Below, in pieces: positions 8,165 to 42,555 of a stretch of 64,000 bases of DNA. This DNA comes from Candidatus Sericytochromatia bacterium (GTDB lineage Bacteria; Cyanobacteriota; Sericytochromatia; S15B-MN24; UBA4093): contig JAKFBU010000043.1 in NCBI GenBank assembly GCA_036676985.1, positions 1 to 64,000 on the forward strand. Reading direction: 5' to 3'. The translations under genes and the position numbers were made by a program. Each line of letters starts with the position of its first letter. Within the stretch, counting starts at the first letter, position 1. The notes below the pieces were generated by a model. That model had not been told where the DNA came from, did no database searches, and was given only the letters and a program-made list of their open reading frames with translations.

Positions 8165-8941
8165 CTAGGGGATGGCGATTTCCAGGGCCGCCGTGGCGAC
8201 CTCGGTGTCGTCGTCGACCTCCACGTCCAGCTGGGCATCGGCGCCTGCGATCGCCTGTCCGTTGAGGTCCTTGGCCTGGGCTTTCAGGCGGTAGGTCGAC
8301 ATGCCTTGTAGGTTGTCGAACGAGACGGTCGAGGGCACCTCGTCCGCGGGAAGGCTCCGCGTCGCGAGCAGGGTCTCCACGTTGCCCGCAAGCGCGTAGA
8401 AGCCGACGTCGAGCGCGGTGAAGAGCACCGAGCCCGTCGCGCTCAGCGTCACGGCCGCGGTCGCCGCGAACGGGGTGGCGACGAGCCGGACCGTCAGCGG
8501 GGCCATGGTGGGTTGGTCGTTGCCGAGCACCGGCACGTCGACGTAGGACTGCTCCGGGATGCTGATGAGGTCGCCCTCGTCGGTCCCCGGCGCCTCGTAG
8601 GCGGACGCCCGGACGCGATAGGTGACGTTGGCTGCGAGGTTCGTGAAGGTGAAGGGGGTGTCCAGCTCCCAGCGGATCAGGTCGGCCGTGACCGGGGCTC
8701 CGGACGACGTCAGGACCGGCGTTTCCACCTGGGACGTGACGCGGCTCAGCGCGAGCACGACGTGGTTCACGCGGGTGGCGTCGACCTGGGGCACCACCGC
8801 CTGGGCCGCATAGCCGCTCGCCTGAAACCGGGGGGTGAGCGTCAGCGTGGCGGTGCCGGTCGTCGTCCGCGCGACCGGACCGGCGGCCGCACAGCCGCAG
8901 AGGGCCAGCAAGAGAAGGGGAGCAAACCGAGTGGCTTTCAT
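8165..8941 (-). CDS. Lipoprotein with two tandem beta-sandwich-like domains
   Basis: Lipobox LALCGC; motif F.NL....TYR..A.A occurs twice. Confidence 0.75.
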   Translation of the reverse strand: MKATRFAPLLLLALCGCAAAGPVARTTTGTATLTLTPRFQASGYAAQAVVPQVDATRVNHVVLALSRVTSQVETPVLTSSGAPVTADLIRWELDTPFTFTNLAANVTYRVRASAYEAPGTDEGDLISIPEQSYVDVPVLGNDQPTMAPLTVRLVATPFAATAAVTLSATGSVLFTALDVGFYALAGNVETLLATRSLPADEVPSTVSFDNLQGMSTYRLKAQAKDLNGQAIAGADAQLDVEVDDDTEVATAALEIAIP

Positions 8942-8993
8942 AAGGGTACCTCGTCGGGGCGAGGGGGGGCCGGCACGGCCGGCCCCCCTCCGG

Positions 8994-10487
8994 TTACTGG
9001 ATCGGGAAGCGCTGCACGTGATTGTTGGTGAAGACGTACAGCGAGTTGCCCGCCACCACGCTCTCGTGGCCCCACTCGTTGTCGGTCAGCGAAACCCCGT
9101 CGACCACGGAGAAGGCCCCCAGGGTGCCGTCCGGGTTGACGGTGGCCGCCTCAATCGTGGACACGCCGCCGCTGCCCGAGTTACCCCCGATGGCGTAGAG
9201 CTTGCCGCCGATGAAGACCCCGCACCCGGCGTCGCGCCCGGTATTGAGGGTCACGCCCGCCTCCTGGATATTGCCGAGCGACCCATCCGGGTTGATCGGG
9301 GCCCGCAGGACGCCCTTACGCGTTCCATAGCCGCTGCCGAGGAGGTAGAGCGAGCTGTTGGCGCGAACCGTCGCGAAGCCGGCGTTGGCCGAGGGAAGGT
9401 TGAGATCCGGGTTGGTAACGAAGTTCCCAAGCGTCCCGTCCGAGTTGATGGACGCCACCTGGGTGGTCGAAAGCCCGGAGTTGTTCTGCAGGGCGCCACC
9501 GAGCACGTAGACCTTGCCGCCGCCCACGTACAGCCCGAACCCGGCGACCCCCGTTTGAAGCTGACTGCTCACCGTCTCGAAGGCCCCGAGCGTCCCGTCC
9601 GGGTTGATGGTCGCGGCCTCGATGCTAGTCAACCGGGCATTGGCCTGGGGATTGTAGCCGCCGAAGACGTAGAGGCGATTGCCGATGACCGCCCGGCGGA
9701 AGCTACGGCGCGGCACCGTGAGGGTCACCCCCGCGTCCACGAAGGCCGACATGCTGGCCGCCGGCAGCACGTTGGCCACCATGACCTTGGTGTTGGCGCT
9801 GTAGGCGCCCATCTGGTAGACGCGGTTGCCGATGCGGATGGGCTCCAGGTAACCGCCGACCGCGTCGGTGATCGCGAAATCGTCGGCCTTGGCCTGCAGC
9901 GAGCCGTTGATGCCCACGTTGATGCTCTCGGAGGCGACCGGGCGATAGCCGCCGTCGATCACTGCGACGCCGCTCGAGGTCGCCGTTCCCGAGAAATCGA
10001 CGTCCGTGAGCGTGACCACGAGCTGCTCCATGGGAGGCTGATCGTTGTTCGTCACCGTCACGTCGATGAACGACCCCTCGGCCTTGCTGATGAGGTCGGC
10101 CGCGTTCGTGCCGACGGCCCGATAGGCGTAGGCCCGGACGCGGTAGGTCCGGCCGGCATGCAGGTCCGCGATGGTGATGGGGTTGGTCAGCTCATCCCGC
10201 TGCAGATCCACCTGGACGGGCGTCCCGCCGGCGCCGAGCACGGGGGTCTCGTCCTCTCCCTCGAGGGCGAAGAGCTTGATCACCAGGTGGTCGATGCTCT
10301 GGGCGGTGTGCGGCGTCACCACGGCCGAAACCGCGTAGCCGCCGTTGACGATGCGCGGCTTCAGGACCAGCTTGCCGGTCGCGGCCACCGTGGCCGAAGG
10401 CGCGGAGGACAGGGGCAGGTCGAGGGCGGTGCAGCCGGCCATCAGAAGGCTGGCGGCCAAGAGGGCGGCATGCGAAGCGTTTTTCAT
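8994..10487 (-). CDS. Lipoprotein: beta-sandwich domain plus Kelch-repeat propeller
   Basis: Lipobox LMAGC; Kelch blades LYVFGG, VYVLGG and LYAIGG with recurring INPDGTLG; start MKNASH after AAGGA. Confidence 0.85.
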   Translation of the reverse strand: MKNASHAALLAASLLMAGCTALDLPLSSAPSATVAATGKLVLKPRIVNGGYAVSAVVTPHTAQSIDHLVIKLFALEGEDETPVLGAGGTPVQVDLQRDELTNPITIADLHAGRTYRVRAYAYRAVGTNAADLISKAEGSFIDVTVTNNDQPPMEQLVVTLTDVDFSGTATSSGVAVIDGGYRPVASESINVGINGSLQAKADDFAITDAVGGYLEPIRIGNRVYQMGAYSANTKVMVANVLPAASMSAFVDAGVTLTVPRRSFRRAVIGNRLYVFGGYNPQANARLTSIEAATINPDGTLGAFETVSSQLQTGVAGFGLYVGGGKVYVLGGALQNNSGLSTTQVASINSDGTLGNFVTNPDLNLPSANAGFATVRANSSLYLLGSGYGTRKGVLRAPINPDGSLGNIQEAGVTLNTGRDAGCGVFIGGKLYAIGGNSGSGGVSTIEAATVNPDGTLGAFSVVDGVSLTDNEWGHESVVAGNSLYVFTNNHVQRFPIQ

Positions 10488-10987: not shown

Positions 10988-11737
10988 ATGGCGACTGATC
11001 AGCCGCACCGAATCCTGGTGGCCGAAGACGATGCCGAGTACCGGGCCGTTCTGGTCGAGTGGCTCCGCGACTCGGGTTACGCGGTCGAGGAGGCGCCTCA
11101 TGGCAAGGCCGCCATGGAGCTTGCGGGCGAACAACGCTTCGACGTGGTGCTCACCGATCTCAGGATGCCCGAAGCCAACGGCCTGGAATTGCTCGAATGG
11201 TTCAAGGTGATGCAGCCGGCCGCAGCGGTCATCTTCCTGTCGGGCCAAGCCACGATCCACGATGCCATCCGGGCGCTGCGCGAGTGGGGCGGCTTCGACT
11301 TCCTGGAAAAGCCCGTCGAGTTGACGGAGCTGACCTCGATCATCGAGCGGGCGATCGCCCAGAGTCCGTCTCAGGCCACCGTTTCCCCACCCGAGCCGCC
11401 GTCCGTTCCGCCCTCGACCCTCACGCAGCGCGCCCTGAGCGTGATCGCCGAGCGCTTCCGCGAGCCGATCGGCCTGAGCCAGCTCAGCCGGGAGCTGGGC
11501 TATTCAGCCGCCTACCTGACGGATTCCCTGCGGCGAGAAACGGGCAAGACCGTGTTGCAGTGGATCATGCACCACCGCCTGGAGGAGGCCAAGGGCCTCA
11601 TGGGCTCGACCGACTGGACGGGCCAGCAGATTGCCGAGGCAGCGGGCTTTTCGAGCTACAACCAGTTCCTGCACCAGTTTCGCCAGGTGTACGGCGTGAC
11701 GCCGAGGGCGTGGCGCGACGCTAGCAAGACTCGCTGA
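10988..11737 (+). CDS. Response regulator (REC plus AraC HTH)
   Basis: ILVAEDD, VLTDLRMP and FLEKP, then AraC motif IAEAAGFSSYNQFLHQFRQVYGVTP. Confidence 0.92.
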   Translation: MATDQPHRILVAEDDAEYRAVLVEWLRDSGYAVEEAPHGKAAMELAGEQRFDVVLTDLRMPEANGLELLEWFKVMQPAAAVIFLSGQATIHDAIRALREWGGFDFLEKPVELTELTSIIERAIAQSPSQATVSPPEPPSVPPSTLTQRALSVIAERFREPIGLSQLSRELGYSAAYLTDSLRRETGKTVLQWIMHHRLEEAKGLMGSTDWTGQQIAEAAGFSSYNQFLHQFRQVYGVTPRAWRDASKTR

Positions 11738-14150
11738 GCGCCGGGAAGGGGACTGACTCCTCGCCCTCGACGAACAGGGGCACCGTGAACCAGAACGTGG
11801 TGCCGACGCCGGAGAGGCTCTCCACCCCGATCGTGCCCCCATGCGCCTCGACGATTGCCTTGGCGATGAAGAGTCCCAGCCCCACGCCCTGATCGCGGTC
11901 GAGGGCTTCCGCGTGGACCTGGCTGAACCGCTGGAAGAGTGCCGGCAAGGCGGTGCTCTCGATGCCCGGTCCGTTGTCCTGGACCTCGCAGCGTACCTGG
12001 TGGCCTTCGAGTCCGACGCGCACCTGGATGAGCCCGTTGGCGGGAGTGTAGCGGATGGCGTTGTGGATCAGGTTCCGGAAGACCTGCTCGAGCCGCGTGC
12101 GATCCCCGCAGACCTCGGGCAGCTCCGGTGGGAGGCTCAGCGCGAGGGTATGCCCCTTTTGATCGGCCAGCCCACGCATTTCGGCCACCATGTCTTTCGC
12201 CACCGTCCCGAGCTCGAGCGAACGCGTGCGCAGCCGGAAGTGGCCGCTCTGTAGCTGGCCTGCATTCAACAGGTCGCCCACCAGCCCGATCAGGTGGGTG
12301 AGGCTGCGGCGGATCCGGTCGTGCTGGCTGATGCTCTTCTCATCCAGGGCCTGCTCATGGCGCTTGAGGATGCTGAGCGATCCCAGGATCACGCTCAGCG
12401 GGACCTTGAGCTCGTGGCTGACCATGTTCAGGAACTGGCCCTGCATGGCCTCCGAACGCCTGAGCGCCTCGATTTCCTGGCTCTGGAGCCGGACCTTCTC
12501 GAATCGCTCGAAGAGGTTGAGCCAGACGGCGAGCAGCTGCGTGAGCTCCTTGAACAGGGCGCGGTCGAGCTCGGTGTACGGAAGGTCGGACTTCTTGGGG
12601 CCGATTGCCGCATGGCCGAGCACGTGATCCTGGACGACCAGGGGCAGGATCTCCCAGGGCTTGCCCTGCGGCGGCGGGAAACCCGCGGCGAGCATGGTCG
12701 CGAGCGCCGAGCGTTCGGCGTCGGTGCAGCCGCGACCGGCGAACGGCCGGAGGCCGTCTCGATCCAGGACCAGCGCCACGCGGGTCGGGGCGAGCGACTG
12801 CTCGAGCGTCTCGAGATAGGCCTCGATGAGCACCTCGGCCTGCACGGTTTCCTGGGCGGTCCTGGTAAAGGCGGCGATGACCTCGTCGAACCGGTAGGGG
12901 CTCCGGAAGAACCTGGCATCCAGCCACCGCTTGACGCGATCGCGCACCGGGACGAAGGCCAGCGCCACCAGGGCCGTCGCGACGATGCTCGGCAACTTCG
13001 TGCGGTCACCGAGCACGGCCTGGGTCGCCCCGGCGCTGAGGAAGTAGAGCACGGTCAGCACGCTCACCGAGATGGCGTAGGTGATCGAGCGCTTGAGGAA
13101 CGGCGTGAGGTCGAACAGCTGATGCCGGACGATGGCGTAGGAGATGGCGAGGGGCCAGAGCGGCAGGGCGAAATTCTCAAGGCCCTCGAGATCGAAGGCG
13201 AGGCCGAGCGTCTGAGCCTGGGGCACGATCAAGGCGGGCACGGTCGAAAGGAGGGTCCCCACCAGGAGCGCCGCGCTCTGTCCCTTCTCGCTCGGCGTGC
13301 TGCGCGGACTGAAGTAGGTCCAGAGCGAGTTGGCGAGCAGGACGAGCTCCCCCAGGGCGATGTAGGCGAGGTGTCCGAACGTGACCCAGAACAGCCCGCG
13401 ATCCGTCTCGTGACACGCCACCAGGACGACCGCGAGCACCAGGCCGACGACCACGTTCACCCTCCGCGCCCCTTCCAGCGCCGGATGCCGGCGGGGGAAC
13501 TGGAGGGCGAAGTTGGTGAAGAAGAGGGCGATGAACCACTGCAGGAGCTTGCTGGTGTCCTGGAACGGCGATAGAAACGTCGTGCTCTGATCGAAGACGG
13601 TGAGCAAGGCCGCCGTGCCGGCCAGGTGAAAGGCCAGGTTGGCCGTGGCCAGCGGGTCTCCGGGTTTCAGGACGGAGACGAGGCTGCCCAGCACCAGGAA
13701 GCTGATGCCCGTGATCCAGAGCGCCAGGAACGTGCTGGCCCAGAGCCGCACGTCATGCGCCTGGGTGGCGATGACCTTGGTCATGCGGGTCGTGGCGCCG
13801 TTCGGCAGGTGACGCTCGAGGTCGTAGGCGAGGGGAGTGCCGACGGGCCTGGTGGCGACGTAGGCATAGAGGTCGCGCGGGTCCTCGAGCGCCTTGCCGT
13901 CCACCGCCACGATCCGATCGCCCGGCATGAGGCCGGCCTGGGCACCCGTGCTCTGGGGGGGCAACTGCATCTCGACCGCCCGATCCATGCGGAGCTTGAA
14001 CCCCGGGTAAGGTCGGTCGAGCCAGGAGAGGGCGGTGGCGAACGAAACGATGGCCGCCACCAAGAGGGTTATGACCATCGCCCAGAAGGCGGCGCGTCGG
14101 AGTCCGGCGTCGCCCATCGCCAATGCCGTGCGACTCAGAAGTTGCTTCAT
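11721..14150 (-). CDS. Membrane sensor histidine kinase with an extracytoplasmic PDZ domain
   Basis: AGLMPGDRIVAVDG (PDZ), several TM helices, SHELKVPL (H-box), NLIHNAIRY, DNGPGI and GVGLGL. Confidence 0.92.
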   Translation of the reverse strand: MKQLLSRTALAMGDAGLRRAAFWAMVITLLVAAIVSFATALSWLDRPYPGFKLRMDRAVEMQLPPQSTGAQAGLMPGDRIVAVDGKALEDPRDLYAYVATRPVGTPLAYDLERHLPNGATTRMTKVIATQAHDVRLWASTFLALWITGISFLVLGSLVSVLKPGDPLATANLAFHLAGTAALLTVFDQSTTFLSPFQDTSKLLQWFIALFFTNFALQFPRRHPALEGARRVNVVVGLVLAVVLVACHETDRGLFWVTFGHLAYIALGELVLLANSLWTYFSPRSTPSEKGQSAALLVGTLLSTVPALIVPQAQTLGLAFDLEGLENFALPLWPLAISYAIVRHQLFDLTPFLKRSITYAISVSVLTVLYFLSAGATQAVLGDRTKLPSIVATALVALAFVPVRDRVKRWLDARFFRSPYRFDEVIAAFTRTAQETVQAEVLIEAYLETLEQSLAPTRVALVLDRDGLRPFAGRGCTDAERSALATMLAAGFPPPQGKPWEILPLVVQDHVLGHAAIGPKKSDLPYTELDRALFKELTQLLAVWLNLFERFEKVRLQSQEIEALRRSEAMQGQFLNMVSHELKVPLSVILGSLSILKRHEQALDEKSISQHDRIRRSLTHLIGLVGDLLNAGQLQSGHFRLRTRSLELGTVAKDMVAEMRGLADQKGHTLALSLPPELPEVCGDRTRLEQVFRNLIHNAIRYTPANGLIQVRVGLEGHQVRCEVQDNGPGIESTALPALFQRFSQVHAEALDRDQGVGLGLFIAKAIVEAHGGTIGVESLSGVGTTFWFTVPLFVEGEESVPFPALSESC

Positions 14151-18361: not shown

Positions 18362-20011
18362 TTACTTGCCGTCGATCTTGACGTTGGTGAACACCACCGG
18401 GTGGTCGGTGGTCTTGTTGATGAGGCCGTCCCGTTCCCGCCGGAAGCGGGTGAACTTGACGTCCTTGGAGCCGAAGATCCAGTCGATGCCGTCCCTGCGG
18501 CGCGGGTTCGCGGCCTTGAGGGGGGCGCCCTTGGTGAAGATCTTGCGCGCTTCGCCCACCGAGTTCATGTCCCCCATGACGAACACCGGCAGCCCGGACT
18601 TCTCCAGGAGCTGCTTCGCCAGGGCGGCCTCCTTGCGGGCGGCCGCGTCGCGGAAGCCTTCCTGGTGGTGGTACCGGCGCGTGTTGGCGGGGTTGTGCGC
18701 ATCGATGAAGTAGGCCTCCTGCCCCGTCTGCTTGTTTCTCAGGAGGACGTACGGCACCTTGGAGTCCATGCCCCCATACGAGGGCACCGTGAGGTGGTCG
18801 CCCTTGACGAGCTTCCAGGTATCCTTGCGCCAGGCGAGGGTCGTGTCGTGGTAGCCGGGCTTGCCGCTGGCCCCGGCGAACGTCCCGTACTCGTCGCCTG
18901 CCGTCTTCTTGAAGGCGACGAGCTGATCGTGGGACATCTCCTGCATCCCAACCACGCTCACATCGTTGGCCTTCAGGATCCGGGCCACATCGCGCATGCG
19001 CTCGGGCCCCGGGGCATAGCCCTTGCTTTTCCCGGCTCCGGAGCTCAGGACGTTGAACGAGCTCAGCACGAACTTGGTGGGGCCGTCGGCCGGGTCCTTG
19101 TCCTTGTCCTTTGCCCCGGGCTCGAGGGCCTGGGTCACGCCGGCGGCATACTCGTCGCGGGTGACGACGCCGTCGCGATCGGCGTCGAAGTCCTGGACGC
19201 CCTTCGCCTCTTTGCCCGCGAGCTGGCCATCGCCGTCCAGGTCGAGCTTCTTGAACGTCACGTTGATGCCTTCGCCCAGGTAGTCGGCCTTGACCGTCTG
19301 GCCGAGGAACGATCCCTCGACCCCGGCCTTGCGGTCGGCTTCCTGGCCGCTCTGGAACTCGAGCTTCGAGACCCGGCCATCCCGGTTGAGATCGTAGTGG
19401 TCGTACTTGCCGGCCTCGGCGGCATTGAGCTTGCCGTCGCCGTTCCGGTCGGCGCGGTCGAATCTCCGGTCGGTCCGCTCGTCGACCCTGGCTCGCCAGT
19501 CGGCTCCCACGCCCGCGCGGAACTCGGCGCGGGTGACGGTCCCGTCGCGGTCCGTGTCATAGTGCTTGACTTGCTTGGCTTCCGATTTCGACAGCACGCC
19601 GTCATGGTCGCCATCCGCCTGATCGAAGGCGTGGTCCCGAATCGCGGTCGCGGCCTCGTGGCGATCGGCCCGAAAGCCCGCCTCGAACTCTTCTTTAGAA
19701 AGGTTGCCGTCGGCGTTCTGGTCATGGCGCGCGAGCTGGGCGGACTCGGCGGCGCTCAGCTTGCCATCCCGGTCCGCATCCAGGCCCTGGAAGCTCAGCT
19801 TCGATTCGCGACGGGTCACCTTGCCGTCGCCGTTCTGGTCGCGGGCCGCAAACTTGGCGGCACCCTTTTCCAGCAGCTCCTTGTCGGCCAGCACGCCGTC
19901 CTTATTGGCATCGAGCGCCTTGAAGGCCGAGGCGAGCCTTTCTTGCTCGGAAGGCTTGCCCTTGGAAGGCCGCGCTTGGTGCTGGGGACCGTTGGGTTGG
20001 TTGATCTTCAT
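18362..20011 (-). CDS. Multi-EF-hand protein fused to an EEP phosphoesterase/nuclease domain
   Basis: Ten Dx[DN]xDG-type loops, then SFNVL, GMQEM, MGDMN, IDWIF and TDH. Confidence 0.85.
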   Translation of the reverse strand: MKINQPNGPQHQARPSKGKPSEQERLASAFKALDANKDGVLADKELLEKGAAKFAARDQNGDGKVTRRESKLSFQGLDADRDGKLSAAESAQLARHDQNADGNLSKEEFEAGFRADRHEAATAIRDHAFDQADGDHDGVLSKSEAKQVKHYDTDRDGTVTRAEFRAGVGADWRARVDERTDRRFDRADRNGDGKLNAAEAGKYDHYDLNRDGRVSKLEFQSGQEADRKAGVEGSFLGQTVKADYLGEGINVTFKKLDLDGDGQLAGKEAKGVQDFDADRDGVVTRDEYAAGVTQALEPGAKDKDKDPADGPTKFVLSSFNVLSSGAGKSKGYAPGPERMRDVARILKANDVSVVGMQEMSHDQLVAFKKTAGDEYGTFAGASGKPGYHDTTLAWRKDTWKLVKGDHLTVPSYGGMDSKVPYVLLRNKQTGQEAYFIDAHNPANTRRYHHQEGFRDAAARKEAALAKQLLEKSGLPVFVMGDMNSVGEARKIFTKGAPLKAANPRRRDGIDWIFGSKDVKFTRFRRERDGLINKTTDHPVVFTNVKIDGK

Positions 20012-20095
20012 GGCGACTCCCGGTGAGCTGGGCAACCTCGAGTCTTATGCCACCGAGAGTGGGATTCCTTGCGCGCCGAGGGCCGGAGCCGACCA

Positions 20096-20119
20096 AAATC
20101 CCCGGCCGAAGCCGGGGAT
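20096..20119 (-). terminator. Intrinsic terminator at the end of the heme-uptake operon
   Basis: ATCCCCGGC-TTCG-GCCGGGGAT followed by TTT on the minus strand. Confidence 0.65.
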
Positions 20120-20132
20120 GATGGGCTCGGGT

Positions 20133-21338
20133 TTACTTGATGGCGGTGCGATCGACCACCGAGACCGTGTTCTCCGAGAGATTGGAGACGAAGGCCTTGG
20201 CATCGGTGAAGGCCATCTTGTGGTGGCCGGCCCCGACGGTCACCACGGCGATCGCCTGCTGGGTCTCGGCGTCGAGCACCGTCACCGACCCGTCGCCGTC
20301 GCCGCCGATCCAGATCTCCTCGGCGGCCCCCTGTCCCGGCTTGCGAACGGCATAGAGGTGCACGGGCTTGGCGGGCGTCCCGGCGACCCCCTTGCCCACC
20401 TTGATCTGGCTGTGGACCTTGCGGTTCGCCACGTCCACGATCGCGACCTCTCCGGAGCCCGCGCACGTGACGTAGGCGAAGCGTCCGTCGGCCCTGAGGA
20501 CCATGTCCGTGGGGGTGGAGCCCACGGGCAGGGTCGCGAGCGTCTGCTTGGCGTTCAGGTCATGGAGCACGACGGTGTTCGAGTTCTTGTTGCCGTAGAG
20601 CAGCACGGCGCCTCCGTCCAGGGTCGAGATGCCGATGGGACCGGGGTTGTTCCCCTCCTGGAGGGTGACGAGCGAGTCGGCCGTCCCCGGCTTGACGAGG
20701 GAGACGGCGTTGTCCGGGCCGTTGGGCACGGCCAGGAACCCACCCTTGACGGCCAGGAAGCCCGCCGTGAAGGCGGTTGCCCCGGGGCGCCTCACCGTGA
20801 GGGACTCGGTGGCGGCCGCGGCCTCGAAGCCGTTCGGCCAAGCCACCTTGACCACGTTGGCGTCGGCTGCGGTCCCGACCGCCAGGTAGGCCGTGGTGTC
20901 ATCGACCCACGCGAGCTTGGAGCCAGGAGCCTTGCCCAGCGCCACGGTTCCCACGACGCTTTGGCTGCTGCCCTTGATGACCCGCAGGACATGAGCCTTG
21001 GAGTCCATGGTGACGGCGTACAGGCCGTCGTGCGTGGCCTGGGCCTGCGTGGGGCTGTTGGTGGTATTGCCGCCTTCGAACTCCAGGGTCTTGACCACCG
21101 CATCGCTGGCGGGGTCGATGAGGGAGATGGTGCCGGACTTGGGGTTGGAGTTGACGATGATCCCGCCGGCCAGGGCGATGCCGTGAGGGCCCTCACCCAC
21201 CGGGATGGTCTTCGAGTGGCTCAGTTGCTTGATGCCGTCCGGAGCGCTGATCTGAGCGGGGGACGTGGGGGTACAGGCGGTGACGAGCAGGGTGCCGGCG
21301 ATCGCCAGGGGCAAGACGCGCGGTGCGAGACGACTCAT
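20133..21338 (-). CDS. YncE/YVTN-type beta-propeller lipoprotein
   Basis: Lipobox LVTAC; blades IPVGEGPHGI, LPVGSTPTDM and VTVGAGHHKM. Confidence 0.85.
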   Translation of the reverse strand: MSRLAPRVLPLAIAGTLLVTACTPTSPAQISAPDGIKQLSHSKTIPVGEGPHGIALAGGIIVNSNPKSGTISLIDPASDAVVKTLEFEGGNTTNSPTQAQATHDGLYAVTMDSKAHVLRVIKGSSQSVVGTVALGKAPGSKLAWVDDTTAYLAVGTAADANVVKVAWPNGFEAAAATESLTVRRPGATAFTAGFLAVKGGFLAVPNGPDNAVSLVKPGTADSLVTLQEGNNPGPIGISTLDGGAVLLYGNKNSNTVVLHDLNAKQTLATLPVGSTPTDMVLRADGRFAYVTCAGSGEVAIVDVANRKVHSQIKVGKGVAGTPAKPVHLYAVRKPGQGAAEEIWIGGDGDGSVTVLDAETQQAIAVVTVGAGHHKMAFTDAKAFVSNLSENTVSVVDRTAIK

Positions 21339-21375
21339 GGAACGACGATCCTTTCGGTGTGAGGTCGCGGGGTGT

Positions 21376-22344
21376 TTACAAGAAGCGGTAGTAGGCGAGG
21401 ATGACGTTCTGATCCGTCATGGCGTTGACCCAGGGGCCTCCCGGGTCGCCCCCGTAAGCGAGCCGGAGGCCCTGCCCGTGCGTGAAGCGCCATTCCACGC
21501 TGGGGGAGAGCTTCAGCTTTCCGAGCTGGGCGGCTGTGGGCGAGACGTCGCTCGCGGACGCCTTGCCCCAGAAGGTGGAGGCTCCTAGCCCCAGCCGCCA
21601 ATCCGGGTGGACTTCCCAGTTCGCCTGGAGCTGGCCCAGCAGGGATTGACCGACGTAGAAGGCGGTTGCCGCCCCGGCGCCCGGTGTGGTGAGGGGTTGC
21701 TGAACGCCGACGCTGCCCGAGAGTTCGACGGGGCCCAGCGATTTCAGGGCCGATAGGCCGAGCTGTGCGCTCACGACGCCGCTGCCGGTGATGCTCGCGG
21801 CCTCACCCGACGTGTTGCCCGCCGGCAGGATCATGCCCCCCCAGACGGCGAGAGAGGGCCAGAGATCCGTGCTGCGAAATGCCACGTAGGACGCCTGGAG
21901 GCTGATGTCGCCAACTCCGCCGCCAGCCTGGGACCTGCTGCCGCTCTCTGCGTCGTCGATGGGGAGGACGGCGCCCTGGGCAGCCCACTGGGCGCCGTTG
22001 AGCGAGTTCATGGCGACCGGGACGAGCATGCCCAGGCTCCAGTCGTTTCCTGGGTAGTACGTCAGGCCGAGGTTGGCCTGGAGGGTGTTGAGGCTGCTGT
22101 CCTGGGGCTTGGGCGTCCAGACGCTGCGCTCGTTGAAGCTTCCGGTGACGTCGCGGAAGCTCACGATGGTCTGGTAGAGGAACTGGCCCTGGGCGGCAAA
22201 AAGGGTCGAGCTGCCGGAGACCGACGAGATCTCCGCCCCGCTGCCCGGCAGCGCGCAGCTGCAGTTGCATGCGAGCGCAGGGCTCGCCAGCGCGCCCAGC
22301 GTCAGGGCCGTGGCGGCCAGCAGCTTGAAGGGAAGGGGCATCAC
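21376..22344 (-). CDS. Putative outer-membrane beta-barrel with an N-terminal CxCxC motif
   Basis: Signal peptide ending ALA followed by CNCSC; GGVGDISL motif of MetA-pathway-type barrels; aromatic C-terminus YYRFL. Confidence 0.65.
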   Translation of the reverse strand: MMPLPFKLLAATALTLGALASPALACNCSCALPGSGAEISSVSGSSTLFAAQGQFLYQTIVSFRDVTGSFNERSVWTPKPQDSSLNTLQANLGLTYYPGNDWSLGMLVPVAMNSLNGAQWAAQGAVLPIDDAESGSRSQAGGGVGDISLQASYVAFRSTDLWPSLAVWGGMILPAGNTSGEAASITGSGVVSAQLGLSALKSLGPVELSGSVGVQQPLTTPGAGAATAFYVGQSLLGQLQANWEVHPDWRLGLGASTFWGKASASDVSPTAAQLGKLKLSPSVEWRFTHGQGLRLAYGGDPGGPWVNAMTDQNVILAYYRFL

Positions 22345-22420
22345 CTATTCTCCTTGTTGGGGTCGAGGGAAGGGAATGCGGCTCGCAGGGGCCTCCGAGG
22401 CCCCTGCGAGGTCGGCGCCG

Positions 22421-24196
22421 CTAGTGGTGAGCGTGGCCGGCCGAGCCGTCGGCCAGGTCGAGGGCGGCAATTCCCTCCTTGATTTGCGCTTCGAACCATG
22501 CGACGAACTTGGGATGCGGAGCGAACCCGCTGCCATGCTCGAACGTGAGGCCCTCGAGCAGCCGCTTCTCGGGACCCTGCGCCGTGGTCCGAGCGGGGAT
22601 CACGATCGCGCGTCCCCCGTTGAGGCCGGCGTCCTGCACGAACTGACGGACCTTCACGATCGACGGCTCGCGCTTGTCGGGCCAGTCCTCGCGCCAGGTG
22701 GCCGTCTTGATGGCGCGGAACCGGGAGCCGCCCTTGGCGCGCATGGTCGCGGCGATCGTCTCGAGGTTCTGCTGCCATTCGGCGTTGCGCTGGTCGTTCT
22801 CGGTGCCGTGGGCCACCAGGATCACCGTCTCCTTGCCGGCATCCTTGGACAGGGCGTTGGCGCGGTCCAGGAGCGCCTCGGCAAAGAAGGGGTGGGCGTC
22901 GAGCCCGCCCACCGTGCTCATCACGGCCGAGCTCAGGATCCGGGAGGTGGCCATGGCGCCGTGGCCCCCGTGGCCTCCGCCGTGACCCCCGTGACCGCCG
23001 TGTCCCCCGGCCCCATGGCCACCGGCGGTCACGTGATGGCCCATCGCCTGGTGATGGACGGCGGCCGCGACGTCGGCGCCGATCATGTGCTCGACGTCCC
23101 GCTTGAAGCTGTCGTTGAGACCGAAGACCCGGACGATGACGATGGCCTTGGCGCCACGGCTCTCCAGGCGCCGCACGGCGCGTTCGGTGACGACGGAATC
23201 CGCCATGGAGAGGGCCGGCTCGATCATGTAGCGCTGCGTCAGGGGGCGGACGGCCTCGATCATCGTGCGGTTCCAGTGGTAATCGGAGCCGTGGGCCATG
23301 AGGATCACGCCGATCTCGTCCTGGCGAATCGGCGCGCCGCGATGGCCCTCCTGGCCGAACCAGAGGGGCATGGCCGCGTGGGTGGCGATCTCGCCCTCGA
23401 TCACCTCGACGCCCTTGGGGGTTGCTTCCTTGACGCTGGCATCGAAGCTCATCATCCCGTCCAGCTTCTTGCCGAGGTGGAAGGGCACGATGACCGGGCG
23501 ATCGCTACCCTTGACGGCCGCCTCGAGGTCGGCCTTGAGCTTGTCCTGAGGACCGGCGACGACGACCTTGAGCGCGCCGAAGTCCATGCCCTCGGAAGCC
23601 AGCGTGGCGACGCGCTGCAGGTCGGCCTTCATGGTCTTCTGGCTGGTGCTGTCGGTCGCCCCCGTCCCGACCACGATCACCGTCCGCCCGGCCGGCTTGG
23701 AGACGGCCTGGAGGCGGTTGCCGAGCATGTCGACGGAGAAGTAGGACTCGCCGAACGGGCGGCCCCAGGTGATGGTGGCCCCCGCATGCGTGGTGCGGTC
23801 GCGGAGAATTGACTGGACGTGCTGATAGCCGGGATCGGCGTTCGAAAGGAAGAAGGGCAGCACGACCACGTGCTTGGCACCGGCCTTGACCAGGGCCTGG
23901 ATGCCTTCGCTCACGCTGTGCCGCGTCCGATCGTCCGTGGTGTAGACGATGGTCGCGTTCCGGCCCTGTGCGAACGCCTGGAAGCTGTCTTGCAGCTCGA
24001 CGTTGCCGAGGAACCCGCGATCGGGTGCCACCAGGAGGTAGGCGGTAGCCGCGCTCTCCTTGGCGGCTGCATGGCCGTGGTGGGCCTGGGATCCGCCGGG
24101 TAGGGCGATCGCGGGCTGAGCGGTCCAGACGCCGAGGGCCATCATGGTCGAAAGGGCTCCGGCGCCCAGTAACTGTCGAAGTGGGTTGCGTTTCAC
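22421..24196 (-). CDS. Exported tandem CbiX/SirB-like chelatase with His-rich linker
   Basis: GTG 24196 after AGGAG; signal peptide; VVVLPFFLS, ILMAHGS, AKAIVIVRVF, ILVAHGT; linker HGAGGHGGHGGHGGGHGGHG; ends HAHH. Confidence 0.8.
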   Translation of the reverse strand: MKRNPLRQLLGAGALSTMMALGVWTAQPAIALPGGSQAHHGHAAAKESAATAYLLVAPDRGFLGNVELQDSFQAFAQGRNATIVYTTDDRTRHSVSEGIQALVKAGAKHVVVLPFFLSNADPGYQHVQSILRDRTTHAGATITWGRPFGESYFSVDMLGNRLQAVSKPAGRTVIVVGTGATDSTSQKTMKADLQRVATLASEGMDFGALKVVVAGPQDKLKADLEAAVKGSDRPVIVPFHLGKKLDGMMSFDASVKEATPKGVEVIEGEIATHAAMPLWFGQEGHRGAPIRQDEIGVILMAHGSDYHWNRTMIEAVRPLTQRYMIEPALSMADSVVTERAVRRLESRGAKAIVIVRVFGLNDSFKRDVEHMIGADVAAAVHHQAMGHHVTAGGHGAGGHGGHGGHGGGHGGHGAMATSRILSSAVMSTVGGLDAHPFFAEALLDRANALSKDAGKETVILVAHGTENDQRNAEWQQNLETIAATMRAKGGSRFRAIKTATWREDWPDKREPSIVKVRQFVQDAGLNGGRAIVIPARTTAQGPEKRLLEGLTFEHGSGFAPHPKFVAWFEAQIKEGIAALDLADGSAGHAHH

Positions 24197-24263
24197 GGAA
24201 GAAGTCTCCTTGCGGTCGGACGCCCGGGACGGGAGTCGCTGGGTCGGTTTGGCAGGTGGGCCG

Positions 24264-25025
24264 TCATTCGTCCTGCAGGACGAAGGCGATGGGCACCTCG
24301 ATCCGAAGCTCGGGACCGAGCTCGGGGGGGAGCGGAACGAAGGGGGCAGCCGCCATGACCGTTTGCAGGGCCGCTGCGAGCAGGTGAGGATTCGGCGAGC
24401 TCTCGGAGGCATGGATCTCGCACGGCTGTCCGGACCGATCGACGCGGAAGGCCACGAGGACCGTTCCCGCGATGCCCCGGCGCCGGAGCAGGGGGGGGTA
24501 ATGCTTGTGCGCCTCGAGGCGCTCGCGCAGGGTCGCCAGATAACCGGAACGCACGGCTGCCATGTCGGCAACGGCGCCTTCCCGGCCGCTCTCCGTCGTG
24601 CCTGCCGCCGGGAGGTCCGCATCCTGCGCCGCGGCATCGCTCGGACCCGCGTCGGGAGTGAGGGCCGATCCGGGCACGGCAACGGCCAGCGTCGCGGTGG
24701 CGTTGGGAGTGACGGCCTCGCGCACGCTGGCCTTGGGGCTCGGCGCCGGGGCGCGCGACGTCACGGTGCGGGCCCGGTCAGTCTTGGCCGGCGCGAGCTT
24801 CCTGACCGAGGACCGGACCGCCTCGCGTGGGACTGCGGGCAGCACAGGCGCTGTCAGGTCCAGCATGACCGGGATGACTTCGGGTGGCTCCAAGGCCGGA
24901 AGAGCGTGTGGATCCCAGCCAAGTCCGACCGCCCCGAGGGCGAGGCCCGCATGGAGGAGGAGGGAGGTGGCGAGGGCTCCGGGGAACCGGGGCGCCGGCA
25001 GCATGGGGAGGGAAATCGAGCGCAT
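24264..25025 (-). CDS. tonB: Energy transducer TonB
   Basis: SLLLHAG anchor, Pro/Ala-rich linker, YPPLLRRRGIAGTVLVAFRVDRSG and SS...L..AA. Confidence 0.88.
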   Translation of the reverse strand: MRSISLPMLPAPRFPGALATSLLLHAGLALGAVGLGWDPHALPALEPPEVIPVMLDLTAPVLPAVPREAVRSSVRKLAPAKTDRARTVTSRAPAPSPKASVREAVTPNATATLAVAVPGSALTPDAGPSDAAAQDADLPAAGTTESGREGAVADMAAVRSGYLATLRERLEAHKHYPPLLRRRGIAGTVLVAFRVDRSGQPCEIHASESSPNPHLLAAALQTVMAAAPFVPLPPELGPELRIEVPIAFVLQDE

Positions 25026-25097
25026 GTCGAAGTCTCAAGGGGGCAAAGGGGGCCGGTGTCATCCCGTCCGGTCGGCGGACGGGATGACGTGGAGCGC

Positions 25098-26243
25098 CTA
25101 GAAGGTCGTCGAGGTCCCCGTGGCGACGCACCATTCCAGCTCGTAGGTGCTGGACTGGTAGCTGCGGATCTTGAGCTTCGCGAAGCGGCCGTCGGCCGTC
25201 CGCACGACGTAGATCAGGTTTTTCGGGGTGACGACGTGGGTGGCGGAGTTGTAGTCGTACCAGGCCTTCAAGGCCGGGTTGCCGGTGACTTGGACCGTGC
25301 CCGTCTGGCCCGCGTAGTCGAGCGTTTCGTCCACCGCGACGGTCCCGGCGGGGACCGACGCCAGCTCCAGGAGGCTCGTGGCCGTGCTGACGATCGCGCC
25401 GCCCTGCTGGCCACCGCTCGTGCCGCTGTTGGTACGGATCCGCGTCCCGCTCAGGGCCAGATCCCAGTCGCTGCTGGTCAAGGGATCGGTGGGCGTGACG
25501 ACCTGACCGGTGCGGAGGTTCAGGTAGGTCTGGCCGCTCGAGGGGGCGGACACGGACTTGGTGGTGAACGGCGCGGCGACCTCGGCCCAGCGGAGGGTCA
25601 CGACGCGAGGGGTCTTCGCCGCATCGTAGTAGTCGGTGATCCGGACCTTGTAGAACTTGCCGGCCGTCGTGCGAATGACGTAGACCACTTGCTTGGGCGT
25701 GACGACGTGGGTGGTCGCGTCGTAGGAGTACCAGCCCCCGTTGACGAGGAAGCCGGTGTCCGGGACGTTGCCCGTGTCGTCGGAGTCGGCAGCATCCGCG
25801 ACATAGCCCGCCGCCGGGGCGGTGGTGAGGGCGTCGAAGTCGACGCCCTCGAGGCGGGCAACCGAGACGTTGCCGCTGCCACTGACGCCGCCGTTGGCCT
25901 TGATCGTCGTGCCCTGGAAGGCGAGATCCCAGTCGGTCGAGGCCTCGGGCGAGGCGGGGCTCACCTCCGAGCCGGTGCCGAGGCTGAGGTAGGTCCATGA
26001 ACCGGTTTTGGCGGCATCGGCGTCGATGATCGAGGTGGACACGCCGTTGCTGACCGTGGTGGTGATGCGCGCCGCGGCGGTCTGCGTGCCGTTGCCGGTC
26101 TGGGATCCGGTGGTCGGGGTCTGGTTCGTTCCGGTCAAGCTGCCGGCGAGGTTGGGGGCGCACCCCGTCAGGTTGGCGGCGAGGGTGCCGGCGAGCGCGA
26201 ACTGGGTCAGGGGGTGATGGAGGGGGAGGCGAACGATGATCAT
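25098..26243 (-). CDS. hmuY: HmuY-family heme-binding lipoprotein with two HmuY domains
   Basis: Lipobox LTGC; duplicated WDLAF/WDLAL, N[GS]GxSG, WYxY...THVVTPK..YV[IV]RT..G.F.K motifs. Confidence 0.85.
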   Translation of the reverse strand: MIIVRLPLHHPLTQFALAGTLAANLTGCAPNLAGSLTGTNQTPTTGSQTGNGTQTAAARITTTVSNGVSTSIIDADAAKTGSWTYLSLGTGSEVSPASPEASTDWDLAFQGTTIKANGGVSGSGNVSVARLEGVDFDALTTAPAAGYVADAADSDDTGNVPDTGFLVNGGWYSYDATTHVVTPKQVVYVIRTTAGKFYKVRITDYYDAAKTPRVVTLRWAEVAAPFTTKSVSAPSSGQTYLNLRTGQVVTPTDPLTSSDWDLALSGTRIRTNSGTSGGQQGGAIVSTATSLLELASVPAGTVAVDETLDYAGQTGTVQVTGNPALKAWYDYNSATHVVTPKNLIYVVRTADGRFAKLKIRSYQSSTYELEWCVATGTSTTF

Positions 26244-26266
26244 GGCTGCTCCTTGCTGGGGACGGG

Positions 26267-28192
26267 CTAGAAACGGGACGTGAGGCCTGCGAGGACCGTG
26301 AGGGGCTGGATCGGGAGGTAGGTCGGGTCACCGACGTTCAACAGATTCGAGCCCTGCACGAAGGCCGTGAGTTGACGGGTGAGCGTCTTGGTGAGGCGAG
26401 CGTCGAGCGTGGTATAGGCGGGAGCCTGGGTGAGCGGCGCGCCGGCGGTGCTGTCGTCGTAGAAGGGGCGGGTGCCGTTGAGGGCTGCCCGGGCATAGGC
26501 GCCGAAGCCCCAGGCGTCGTGCTGGTAGCGTGCCGTGAGCGTGCCCTTGTGAAGCGGGCGTCCTTCGAGCGGGCGGTTCAGGCTCCGGTCGAGGGTGTCG
26601 TTGAGCGTGTAGCCGGGCTCGACGATGAGCCCTTCGAACGGCTGAAGTCTCAAGGAGGCCTCGAGGCCCCGGGTCATGGCCGAGCTGACGTTGACGTACT
26701 GGTACTGGGTGATGCTGCCGGCCTCGCTGGGGCGCGCCAGCTCGGTCTGGATGAGGTTCGCGATCTCGTTGTGGTAGAGGTTCATCCCGAGGGCCGACCA
26801 GGAGGTCAGTCGGACCTCCATGCCGAGGTTGAGGCTGCGGGCGGTCTCGGGACGCAGGACGGGGTTCCCGATGACCTCGTAGCCGGCGGACGGGTTCTGG
26901 AACTGCAGCATGAGCTCCTTGAAGTCCGGGGCCCGGAAGCCCGTTCCGTAACTGGCGCGCAGGGTCAAGGCCTTGGTGGGATCGAGGCGCAGGGCGATCT
27001 TGGGCGCGAGGTTGGAGCCGAAGCGGGAGTCGAAATCCATGCGCACGCCGGGCACCACCACGAGGGAGGGGATGCCGAGGGCCTGCCATTCGTCCTGGGC
27101 GTAGAGGGCGCCGCGGACGCGATCGCCATAGGCGGCGTTCAAGCGATCCGTGGAGAGGCGCTCGTAGGCGACCTCGGCCCCCGAGATCAGGAGGTGCTCG
27201 CTGCTGAGGGATCGCTCGTCCTGGAGGTTCAGCTGCGCGAGCTGGTCGATCGTCTCCTGGAACTGGTCAAGGGCGTTCGAGCCGCGTTGATCCTGCAGGA
27301 ACTGGTCGCGGTAGTAGTTGTAGTAGGCGGAGAGCTTGAGGCTGGCGAGATCCGGCAAGCGCAGCTCCGGCTCGAAGGCGGCAGAGAAGCTCTCGGTTTG
27401 GTTGCGACGATCGAAGACGGCCCCTGCGGCGTTGGAGTCGACGCCCCGCTGACCACGGTTGAGGTAGTCGAGGTGGGTCTTGAGGGCGAGGCCGTTTGTC
27501 AGGTGAAAGGTGTTGTTGTTGGAGAGCGTGACCTCGTCGTAGGCGCTGCCCGTGGTCGAGACTGTATCGGGCGTTAGGTCGTAGGCGTCCTGCCGGCGCC
27601 AGCCGGCGGTCAGTCGGGAGTTCAGGGCGTCGTTGCTCGTGTCGACGGTGCCCGAGAAGAGGCCGGCGTTGTGGCTGCCGTAGGCGCCCTGGGTCTCGAA
27701 GGAGAGGGGGGCCTGGGCGGAGCGGGTGAGGATGTTGACGACCCCGCCCATGGCCTCGGACCCGTAGAGGGCCGAGGATCCGCCCCGGACGATCTCGATG
27801 CGATCGATGGACTCGATGGGGAAGCGGCTGAGATCGACGGTCCCGCTCAAGCGGCCGGTTACCCGCCGGCCGTCCACGAGGACGAGGACGTGCTTGGAGT
27901 CGAGGCCCTGAAGGCGGATCCCCTCTCCCTGGAACGAGGAGACGACGTCGATGCCCGTGCGCGAGAGCAGGAGATCGGCGGCATTGCGGGCGCCCGACGC
28001 CTCGATCTCGGCGCGGGGGATGACCTCGGTGGCCACCGGTACGTCGGCCATGCGGCGCTCGCTGCGAGTGCCGGTCACCACCACGTCGTCGAGGCGGTGC
28101 ACGTCGGCGGCATGGGCGGGAGAGGCCGTCAGGAGGAGCAGTGCCGCGAGGGGCAGCCGAGCGAATGGACGAAACGACGGGCGGGAGGACAT
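26267..28192 (-). CDS. TonB-dependent receptor (plug plus barrel), probably heme/iron
   Basis: DDVVVTGTR TonB box, RIEIVRGGSSALYGSEAMGGVVNI, GFRAP and GNPVLRPE motifs, terminal F. Confidence 0.92.
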   Translation of the reverse strand: MSSRPSFRPFARLPLAALLLLTASPAHAADVHRLDDVVVTGTRSERRMADVPVATEVIPRAEIEASGARNAADLLLSRTGIDVVSSFQGEGIRLQGLDSKHVLVLVDGRRVTGRLSGTVDLSRFPIESIDRIEIVRGGSSALYGSEAMGGVVNILTRSAQAPLSFETQGAYGSHNAGLFSGTVDTSNDALNSRLTAGWRRQDAYDLTPDTVSTTGSAYDEVTLSNNNTFHLTNGLALKTHLDYLNRGQRGVDSNAAGAVFDRRNQTESFSAAFEPELRLPDLASLKLSAYYNYYRDQFLQDQRGSNALDQFQETIDQLAQLNLQDERSLSSEHLLISGAEVAYERLSTDRLNAAYGDRVRGALYAQDEWQALGIPSLVVVPGVRMDFDSRFGSNLAPKIALRLDPTKALTLRASYGTGFRAPDFKELMLQFQNPSAGYEVIGNPVLRPETARSLNLGMEVRLTSWSALGMNLYHNEIANLIQTELARPSEAGSITQYQYVNVSSAMTRGLEASLRLQPFEGLIVEPGYTLNDTLDRSLNRPLEGRPLHKGTLTARYQHDAWGFGAYARAALNGTRPFYDDSTAGAPLTQAPAYTTLDARLTKTLTRQLTAFVQGSNLLNVGDPTYLPIQPLTVLAGLTSRF

Positions 28193-28208
28193 GGGGGCTC
28201 CTGGTGTA

Positions 28209-28288
28209 AATGCGAATCATTCTCAATAGGCAAGCAGTATATTGCAGTCGTTTCTCATTTGCAATGAGAATGAGAAACATTCTCATGT
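28209..28288. promoter_or_regulatory. Cluster of Fur-like boxes upstream of the receptor
   Basis: AATGCGAATCATTCTCAAT and AATGAGAATGAGAAACATTCTCAT resemble the GATAATGATAATCATTATC hexamer array, within an AT-rich patch. Confidence 0.75.
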
Positions 28289-28430
28289 GCAATTGAGTGG
28301 TCGAAGGGCCGCCGAGCAAGTGAGCATGCGTCCTGAGGCCGGGCAATAATTTCTCTGTCTCATGCGAGCAGCCCCCTAGGCCGCCTGGCATGCGATGTGC
28401 CATCATGGGCCTCACCGAGGAGGAGACCCC

Positions 28431-28976
28431 ATGAAACGGATGACTGTCGCGCTCTTTGCAGCCTCGTTCTGGTGGACGGCCGCACCGGCACAGGCCCTGC
28501 TCTTCGAGCGGGCCGACATTCACCAGGGCCAGAGCGTGGTCGGAGTCGGGTGGAACGACGGCTATGGCGTCATCGTGGGCGCGAGCTACGGGTTGACGCC
28601 GACCCTCAGCCTCGGCGCGATGGTGTCGCAGAACACCCGTCCGAGCGTGGTCGGGACGCTGAAGCTGGGCGAAACGCCGTTCGGTCTGAGTTACGGCGTC
28701 TCGCTCGGTTACGTCGAGGTCGGCTATTCAGCGCCTCAGCCCACGACCGGACTCACTTACGGGCGCTTTGCGGGCGTCGCCATCCCCTTCGCCGCGCGGC
28801 TGGGCGGCCCCGAGAGCCCCTTGATGCTACGCGGAGACCTCGTGCGGGCCCACGTTCCCCTCGGCGGGGAGAGTCCCGGCTTCGAGTGGATGAACGTCGA
28901 GATCGCCTATCGCTGGGGAGTGGTCGAGTTCAAGACCGGCACCCGCAGCCCCATTGGCTTTCGACTTGTTTTCTAG
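28431..28976 (+). CDS. Hypothetical exported protein, probably a small beta-barrel
   Basis: GAGGAGG RBS, signal peptide ending AQA, alternating beta pattern, terminal F. Confidence 0.65.
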   Translation: MKRMTVALFAASFWWTAAPAQALLFERADIHQGQSVVGVGWNDGYGVIVGASYGLTPTLSLGAMVSQNTRPSVVGTLKLGETPFGLSYGVSLGYVEVGYSAPQPTTGLTYGRFAGVAIPFAARLGGPESPLMLRGDLVRAHVPLGGESPGFEWMNVEIAYRWGVVEFKTGTRSPIGFRLVF

Positions 28977-42336: not shown

Positions 42337-42410
42337 TGGGCACAACTGGATTCGAACCAGTGACCTCATCGATGTCAACGATGCGCTCTAACCAACTGAG
42401 CTATGCGCCC
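42337..42410 (-). tRNA. tRNA-Val(GAC)
   Basis: Cloverleaf GGGCGCA..., anticodon arm CATCG-TTGACAT-CGATG, GGTTCGAATCC; CCA not encoded. Confidence 0.95.
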
Positions 42411-42433
42411 TGAATTCCTTGGAATTCAAGGAG

Positions 42434-42504
42434 AGGCGGCACCCAGATTCGAACTGGGGGTGGAGCTTTTGCAGAGCTCTGCCTTACCACTTGGCTATGC
42501 CGCC
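42434..42504 (-). tRNA. tRNA-Cys(GCA)
   Basis: GGCGGCATAGCCAAGTGGTAAGGC, anticodon arm GAGCT-CTGCAAA-AGCTC, TTCGAAT; CCA not encoded. Confidence 0.95.
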
Positions 42505-42555
42505 GAAATGCTTCGGCCCGCGATTCCCCCAAAGGAACCTTCGGGCCGACGCGAG

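Follow-up and report, generated by a model that had tools for sequence, protein, structure and literature searches.

Only now is it becoming clear, through HmuS in gut Bacteroidota, how bacteria that have neither heme oxygenase nor HemS get at the iron in heme. In this Hmu system, as described in PMC6460266 and PMC12583661, HmuY and the receptor HmuR bring heme into the periplasm, HmuS acts as a heme dechelatase that removes the iron (PMC12583661), and FeoB imports it; for Bacteroides fragilis, PMC6460266 reports that heme iron is freed in the periplasm and that FeoAB is required. Hmu is the closest known system to the six-gene operon analyzed here, which lies in a 64,000-nucleotide stretch of DNA (the window) from contig C43 of a 4.68-Mb Candidatus Sericytochromatia genome (79 contigs, marker-gene completeness 100%). 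As in Hmu, genes for an HmuY-family lipoprotein and a TonB-dependent receptor stand side by side, there is no heme oxygenase, and iron would presumably be freed outside the cytoplasm and imported by FeoAB, whose genes share the operon's operator. Unlike in Hmu, no CobN-like HmuS was found in the genome, and its place in the operon is held by a soluble exported protein with two class II chelatase-fold modules, here called CbiX2 (P0001). In addition, HmuY is duplicated within one chain, the operon carries TonB and not HmuTUV, and the host is a Sericytochromatia-like soil bacterium with its own ferrochelatase.

CbiX2 very probably handles imported heme or heme iron in the periplasm. We give an even chance to the fuller reading, in which the operon is an iron-repressed heme-iron acquisition unit and CbiX2 is a periplasmic heme dechelatase that replaces HmuS and feeds Fe2+ to FeoAB.

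Two other described systems place class II chelatases outside the cytoplasm. In the Iht system of Porphyromonas gingivalis (IhtA and IhtB/FetB, structure 9B86), an exported protein of this fold is likewise encoded beside a TonB-dependent receptor in a heme and iron context. FetB is a single-module lipoprotein of the CbiK type, whereas CbiX2 combines two CbiX/SirB-type modules with His-rich insertions and a Sec signal that lacks a lipobox. An ABC (ATP-binding cassette) transporter belongs to the Iht operon; the window operon, by contrast, has no ABC transporter genes, and none was found in 80 related loci. An IhtB-type protein has been proposed to strip heme iron (Dashper et al. 2000, as cited in PMC6460266). 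The periplasmic CbiK of Desulfovibrio vulgaris (2xvx, 2xvz) also shares the class II chelatase fold, and differs from CbiX2 in consisting of a single CbiK-type module; its physiological role is unsettled too. We know of no HmuY or heme-receptor linkage for this protein. It is described in PMC13065792 as binding metalated porphyrin.

The six genes all lie on the minus strand, running from 28192 to 20133 with intergenic gaps of 23-76 nucleotides:

26267-28192, minus strand: TonB-dependent outer-membrane receptor, HmuR-like, 641 amino acids (Pfam Plug and TonB_dep_Rec_b-barrel)
25098-26243, minus strand: HmuY lipoprotein with two hemophore domains, 381 amino acids (PF14064 twice, 147 bits; lipobox LTGC)
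24264-25025, minus strand: TonB, 253 amino acids (TonB_C 53.5 bits, TIGR01352)
22421-24196, minus strand: CbiX2, exported tandem class II chelatase-fold protein, 591 amino acids (signal peptide and two modules)
21376-22344, minus strand: outer-membrane beta-barrel, Phenol_MetA_deg family (PF13557, 37 bits against a cut-off of 22)
20133-21338, minus strand: YVTN/YncE-like beta-propeller lipoprotein, lipobox VTAC (PF21783, 29.6 bits against a cut-off of 27.1; TIGR02276 repeats)

An earlier sequence-only reading of this DNA had described six co-oriented genes between Fur-like boxes and a terminator, forming a heme-type uptake unit that lacks the canonical heme permease and heme-degradation genes. 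The analysis agreed on each count: two 7-1-7 boxes precede the operon and a hairpin follows it at 20095-20117, the operon contains no ABC permease, HemS or heme oxygenase gene, and HemS, heme oxygenase and CobN/HmuS (PF02514) were not found in the whole genome. The HmuY gene, which adjoins the receptor gene, is the only one in the genome, and its product is related to the solved HmuY structures 3h8t (E 1.4e-10) and 8b6a (E 4e-16). The nearest relatives sharing the locus are metagenome-assembled genomes (MAGs) labelled Candidatus Sericytochromatia (loci L002 and L003); in these orthologous operons HmuY has a single domain (L002:2282-3031, L003:2389-3048), as against two in the window, and the tonB gene is missing.

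CbiX2 starts at GTG 24196, behind AAGGAGA; this start was preferred to that of the longest open reading frame (24682), which was rejected. Its Sec-type signal peptide (residues 1-31, ending AIA/LP, no lipobox) bears out the export that had been proposed. The AlphaFold model, made with 119 relatives, had a mean predicted local distance difference test score (pLDDT) of 89.1 and a predicted template modeling score (pTM) of 0.88, with low confidence confined to the signal peptide, residues 392-413 and the tail. Module 1 (~44-291) superposed on the ferrochelatase structures 8aw7 and 1doz (Z 16.3) as well as on FetB 9b86 of P. gingivalis (Z 15.7, root-mean-square deviation 4.1, 225 residues). Module 2 (~289-582) matched SirB 5zt7_B of Bacillus subtilis (Z 18.3, root-mean-square deviation 3.4 over 232 aligned residues), the periplasmic CbiK structure 2xvz (Z 16.3) and CbiX 4ccs of Paracoccus (Z 16.0); the top Foldseek matches were also chelatases. 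As modeled, each half forms a complete class II chelatase module, with two Rossmann-like alpha/beta subdomains that form a cleft, and the tandem architecture first read from the sequence stands by superposition. CbiX2 has three His-rich segments. Both termini are His-rich, and the His/Gly-rich stretch at ~386-425, earlier taken for a linker between the modules, proved to be an insertion within module 2, in the position that the His-rich region takes in Methanocaldococcus jannaschii CfbA.

The protein thus has much in common with SirB, the long form of CbiX, and CfbA (5zt7, 4ccs, 6m25): the same fold at Z 16-18, a Pfam CbiX match above cut-off (PF01903, 40.7 bits against 22, in two stretches) and, in module 2, the first catalytic His. 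It differs from them in being exported and tandem, in having no second catalytic His, in carrying DRGF for HG in the N-terminal half of module 1, and in a genomic context of heme and iron uptake and not of siroheme, B12 or F430 biosynthesis. The NCBIfam CfbA model scores it at 31 bits, far below the cut-off of 120. Because the catalytic His pair is not intact, we class CbiX2 as a chelatase-fold protein and not as a sirohydrochlorin chelatase.

The family of CbiX2 is widespread, with more than 400 close homologues, most of them automatically named sirohydrochlorin ferrochelatase or CbiX. An exhaustive search gave 766 representatives at E<=1e-3, 426 at 1e-10 and 125 at 1e-30, a set that includes single-module forms matching module 2 only. 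An N-terminal uncharged hydrophobic segment was present in 111 of 119 aligned members, and in four of the eight exceptions the first conserved motif comes less than 25 residues after the start. At least five His within some 30-residue window occurred in 95 of the 119. The alignment has 52 invariant columns, among them Met331, and the clefts are strongly conserved. A word-index search for fused forms longer than 1035 residues found none, which is weak evidence; the exhaustive search later gave P0249 (1069 residues), in which a module-2-like domain is fused to CarboxypepD_reg, Plug and barrel domains at the receptor's periplasmic end (best family TonB-hemin, 226 bits, below cut-off). A 290-residue N-terminal extension of the L013 receptor open reading frame was rejected as a CbiX-like domain (hhalign probability 0.1) and is probably an over-extension of the reading frame in GC-rich DNA. 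A literature search found no paper on the CbiX2 family in heme uptake.

The neighborhood survey that the sequence-only reading had proposed tied the family to heme receptors and to Fe2+ and Fe3+ transporters. Across 80 genome loci, a full-length TonB receptor gene lay within 1.2 kb of CbiX2 in 44 (43 co-oriented, 1 divergent), and in 38 of the 54 loci whose flanks extend 2.5 kb or more on each side. Twenty of the 44 adjoining receptors, 17 of them from loci without HmuY, were scanned against the NCBI curated families. Fourteen of those 17 exceeded the curated cut-off of TIGR01785 or TIGR01786, and the other three scored best against heme-type families; overall the best family was heme-type in 19 of the 20, TonB-B12 scoring slightly above TonB-hemin, both below cut-off, for the receptor of L035. 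HmuY was encoded beside the receptor in 11 of the 80 loci, from MAGs labelled Myxococcota, Bacteroidota, Ignavibacteriae, Balneolaceae, Gammaproteobacteria and Sericytochromatia. The CbiX2 family therefore accompanies two different kinds of heme receptor. Among other neighbors, feoB abuts CbiX2 in two loci (L057, L066), and clusters of FTR1-cytochrome c fusions (8 loci), ferritin (6), multicopper oxidase (6), PepSY_TM (5) and ExbB or ExbD (7-8) recur. DUF2325 proteins (~270-480 residues) flank the CbiX2/heme-receptor pair, sometimes on both sides, in 20 loci, mostly from Nitrosomonas and Nitrosospira (including L028, L032, L034 and L075). No relative of FecCD or Peripla_BP_2 was found in the 80 loci (tblastn, E<=1e-4). 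Single loci held hemP (L075), an HbpS-like gene and imelysin.

Carriers of CbiX2 include ammonia oxidizers, Myxococcota, Acidobacteriota, Balneolaceae and Sericytochromatia. The distribution is patchy, since only 3 of 47 genomes of the window's class carry the gene. An order-level sample held 2 carriers in 121 genomes, too sparse for a co-occurrence test, and a family-level sample was used instead. CbiX2 occurred in 25 of 101 sampled Nitrosomonadaceae genomes (23 of 99 without the unpublished G262 and G255). With at most ten candidates scored per genome, a TIGR01785 receptor (E<=1e-60) was found in 13 of the 101, all 13 of which carry CbiX2, and in none of the 76 without CbiX2; the receptor gene abuts CbiX2 in 11 of the 13. 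HemS was found in none of the 101, so that it offers no contrast between carriers and non-carriers. In 18 other CbiX2 genomes neither HemS nor heme oxygenase was found, nor was CobN/HmuS in 5 with the HmuY-CbiX2 arrangement. Two CbiX2 copies in Nitrosomonadaceae (G205:C41:6077-7780 and G009:C9:37445-39139) have one in-frame stop each, TAG and TAA; these may be pseudogenes or sequencing errors.

The control region of the window operon, and its end, comprise the following elements:

28271-28285, minus strand: distal Fur-type 7-1-7 box, TGAGAATGTTTCTCA on the minus strand, immediately upstream of and abutting the -35 hexamer
28236-28264, minus strand: sigma-70-like promoter from the promoter scan, -35 TTGCAA, 17-nucleotide spacer, -10 TATACT
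28211-28225, minus strand: proximal Fur-type 7-1-7 box, TGAGAATGATTCGCA as read on the minus strand, lying past the -10 hexamer and ahead of the ribosome-binding site
20095-20117, minus strand: terminator-like hairpin CCCCGGC-TTCG-GCCGGGG followed by AUUUUGG, 16 nucleotides past the stop codon

The promoter is the single sigma-70-like site in 19800-28600 (8.8 kb; 0.3 expected from shuffles), and the inverted repeats that flank or overlap it resemble the Bacillus-type Fur box. Both boxes recur in the orthologous promoters of L002 and L003, the distal one as TTGAGAAT... and the proximal one, at the same position, as TTGAGAAT(T/A)ATTCGCA (that is, TTGAGAAT-N-ATTCGCA), where the proteins are only ~65-70% identical. 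The proximal-type box also precedes feoA in the window's genome. The operator TGAGAATNATTCTCA, a motif derived from two of the seven sites, occurs seven times in the 4.68 Mb at up to two mismatches (1.4 expected) and four times at up to one mismatch (0.05 expected). Two of the five sites outside the operon are directly upstream of feoA, in the same layout (TTGACA ... TATGCT ... box ... ATG). With boxes at its own promoter and upstream of feoA, the operon is under a Fur-type operator common to feoAB. The genome encodes three Fur-family proteins, and judged from these operators the operon would respond to iron. FTR1 was not found in the genome.

A further operator site precedes a porin-like/FMN_bind/PepSY_TM/ApbE operon (G000 contig C73:3895-7574), which may encode a reductase that acts on ferric iron or ferric heme outside the cytoplasm; in L005, L008 and L011, genes related to its porin, FMN_bind and ApbE genes stand near CbiX2. 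Another site (C37:1899) precedes a gene for an S-adenosylmethionine-dependent methyltransferase (G000 contig C37:1984-2754) that is 56% and 54% identical to methyltransferases in two Bacteroidota MAGs (L058:8806-9864 and L072:11647-12276), encoded between HmuY and CbiX2 in the first and just after CbiX2 in the second. Such a gene was found in only 2 of the 80 CbiX2 loci, and a link to porphyrin modification is speculation. The hairpin at the operon's end has a stem of seven G-C pairs and a TTCG loop, and the 45-nucleotide fold at 20088-20132 has an energy of -28 kcal/mol (z = -3.8); a consensus terminator scan missed it because its tail has only four T, and it was found by reading and folding.

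These elements suggest the following route. The double-HmuY surface lipoprotein would capture heme, and the HmuR-like receptor, powered by the operon's TonB, would move it into the periplasm. There CbiX2 would receive it and most likely run the chelatase reaction in reverse on reduced heme, so that Fe2+ is set free while the porphyrin ring stays whole; its His-rich segments could hold the freed metal until FeoAB, encoded behind the same operator, imports it. The flavin/PepSY_TM module under that operator is a candidate electron source. Heme binding and dechelation by CbiX2, as well as the electron source and the fate of the porphyrin, are steps that we infer. Since the genome has its own ferrochelatase, heme is more likely to serve as an iron source than as a heme supply. 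In a bolder variant, imported heme would be given directly to periplasmic cytochrome c maturation, a heme salvage without membrane crossing. The claim that this is a distinct route stands in part: a different protein fold is apparently in the HmuS role, whereas periplasmic dechelation followed by FeoAB is already described for Bacteroides (PMC6460266, PMC12583661).

Several observations weigh against the dechelatase reading. The canonical catalytic His pair, which we take to be His10/His76 in SirB and His9/His75 in CfbA, is incomplete: an invariant DRGF replaces the HG motif in the N-terminal half of module 1, and in either half of module 2 the first His alone is left (H302 and H463, both invariant, in HG motifs), with LAS-SF or PAR at the second position, so that the second His is missing from all four half-domains. 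FetB/IhtB, the nearest studied exported class II chelatase, puts Co and Mn into porphyrin and, in the in vitro assays described in PMC13065792, showed neither Fe insertion nor reverse activity on haemin. Unpublished data mentioned in PMC6460266 have a B. fragilis cbiK knockout leaving heme-iron use unaffected. The window receptor fell below the heme-receptor cut-offs, its two best NCBIfam scores being TonB-B12 (211 bits), marginally ahead, and TonB-hemin (203 bits, cut-off 316.85), both below cut-off. The sequence-only reading had held that a canonical heme ABC importer and oxygenase co-regulated elsewhere would refute a separate route; no heme oxygenase was found, whereas one FecCD permease gene and two unlinked Peripla_BP_2 genes are present, and on their account heme may also be imported into the cytoplasm. 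The heme-degradation searches covered HemS and heme oxygenase, not IsdG, HutZ/HugZ, ChuW or Dyp/EfeB. Finally, the neighborhood and phyletic counts include related, non-independent genomes, and the Nitrosomonadaceae result is a strong association and not a statistic, because those genomes are related and no more than ten receptor candidates were scored in each.

Extended to the whole family, the dechelatase reading has slightly less than an even chance: CbiX2 proteins could represent a second and fold-independent means of anaerobic-style heme dechelation in the periplasm of many non-Bacteroidota that have no heme oxygenase, HemS or HmuS, with FeoB or FTR1 receiving the Fe2+ or Fe3+. If so, an oxygen-independent, ring-sparing heme-iron route would be widespread among soil, groundwater and wastewater bacteria. 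These include ammonia oxidizers, whose need for heme and iron, by the account in PMC3050691, is very large and which produce no siderophores. Enzymologists studying reverse chelation would gain a small soluble protein, and hundreds of genes automatically named cobalamin or siroheme biosynthesis enzymes would need renaming.

The alternative that survives best, although we think it unlikely, is that CbiX2 is a non-catalytic periplasmic heme binder that stores or detoxifies heme from the receptor or passes it on, possibly to another dechelatase, an inner-membrane carrier or, directly, the periplasmic cytochrome c maturation machinery. Chelatases of class II have the same fold as periplasmic binding proteins (PMC12583661), and PMC13065792 describes both periplasmic CbiK and FetB, the latter lacking reverse activity, as metalated-porphyrin binders. 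The incomplete His pairs fit this alternative, and the single His in each half of module 2 and the invariant Met331 could be axial heme ligands. Fusion to the receptor's periplasmic end, as in P0249, suits a catcher as well as an enzyme, and Nitrosomonas and similar carriers need much periplasmic c-type heme (PMC3050691). On the other hand, the search of the 80 loci gave no heme ABC permease or binding-protein partner, and the recurring neighbors feoB, FTR1 and ferritin handle iron and not heme. Searches of the tested genomes gave no HemS, heme oxygenase or CobN, which leaves no known enzyme for delivered heme; the conservation of His-rich, metal-binding segments also speaks against this alternative.

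Those same segments are an argument for an improbable second alternative, in which CbiX2 handles no tetrapyrrole but, as a periplasmic binder or metallochaperone of Fe, Zn, Ni or Co, hands metal from the His-rich segments and cleft to inner-membrane transporters. The His clustering in 95 of 119 relatives and the feoB, FTR1 and ferritin neighbors would suit such a protein, and a chelatase-like fold is common to metal-binding periplasmic proteins; the receptor adjoining CbiX2 in L063 has a weak ZnuD match (76 bits, far below cut-off). What the family is tied to, however, are heme-type receptors (above curated cut-offs in 14 of 17 scanned; all 13 in Nitrosomonadaceae) and HmuY (in 11 loci), not metal-ion or siderophore receptors generally, and two full chelatase modules with strongly conserved clefts exceed the needs of a His-rich buffer.

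Quite improbable, too, is that CbiX2 works forward, as a chelatase or metal exchanger that metalates imported or released porphyrins in the periplasm. The His-rich insertion does occupy the position of the His-rich region of the Ni-chelatase CfbA, which is thought to supply metal. FetB offers a precedent, being exported beside a TonB receptor, inserting Co and Mn and, as reported in PMC13065792, being needed for Mn-protoporphyrin IX production. Co-regulation with feoAB and the iron-uptake neighbors nevertheless indicate iron gain and not pigment synthesis, the organism has its own cytoplasmic ferrochelatase, and the second catalytic His is missing in four of four half-domains.

That the operon imports corrinoids or another tetrapyrrole, with CbiX2 handling cobalt, is very improbable: the TonB-B12 scores of the window and L035 receptors and the presence of cobaltochelatases among CbiX enzymes suggest it, but a search for cobalamin riboswitches in the window and at the FecCD locus gave none at gathering score, the operator is common to feoAB, HmuY domains are present, and the best family was heme-type in 19 of 20 adjoining receptors.

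The PF13557 barrel has the mature N-terminus CNCSC, and ACNC[GS]CALPG is kept in both orthologues. The sequence-only reading had suggested that it buffers metal together with the His-rich stretch. The analysis gave no support to a general iron buffer: the protein is an outer-membrane barrel, and it and the YncE-like lipoprotein adjoin CbiX2 in just 2 of the 80 related loci (L002 and L003). Both are lineage-specific accessories, restricted to the three Sericytochromatia loci. Exit of porphyrin through the barrel would be speculation.

Around the wider family, one representative (P0230) fuses an AhpC/TSA redoxin to a module-2-like chelatase domain, and in L080 a 1-Cys peroxiredoxin and an SCO1/PCuAC protein flank CbiX2 (8634-9239 and 11602-12540); these arrangements hint at redox chemistry around the family. 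In the Bacteroidota MAG locus L072, an extra single-module CbiX gene (9184-9927, 247 residues) separates the HmuY region from the tandem gene, with a siroheme-synthase-like gene ~3 kb from it.

The intergenic region that contains the operator boxes is shared with a divergent gene (28395-28976, plus strand) for a 193-residue protein that has no Pfam match, begins with a signal-like segment and ends in an aromatic residue (...GFRLVF); it may be a small protein of the outer membrane that belongs to this regulon. Past the terminator, the next gene (18362-20035, minus strand) encodes a fusion of many calcium-binding EF-hand repeats to an endonuclease/exonuclease/phosphatase domain, and three tRNA genes cluster at 42337-42628 (minus strand). 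DNA nearly identical to 20133-28288 (74-84% of sampled words) was present in metagenome runs of soil and groundwater that come from two studies, one of them possibly the source study.

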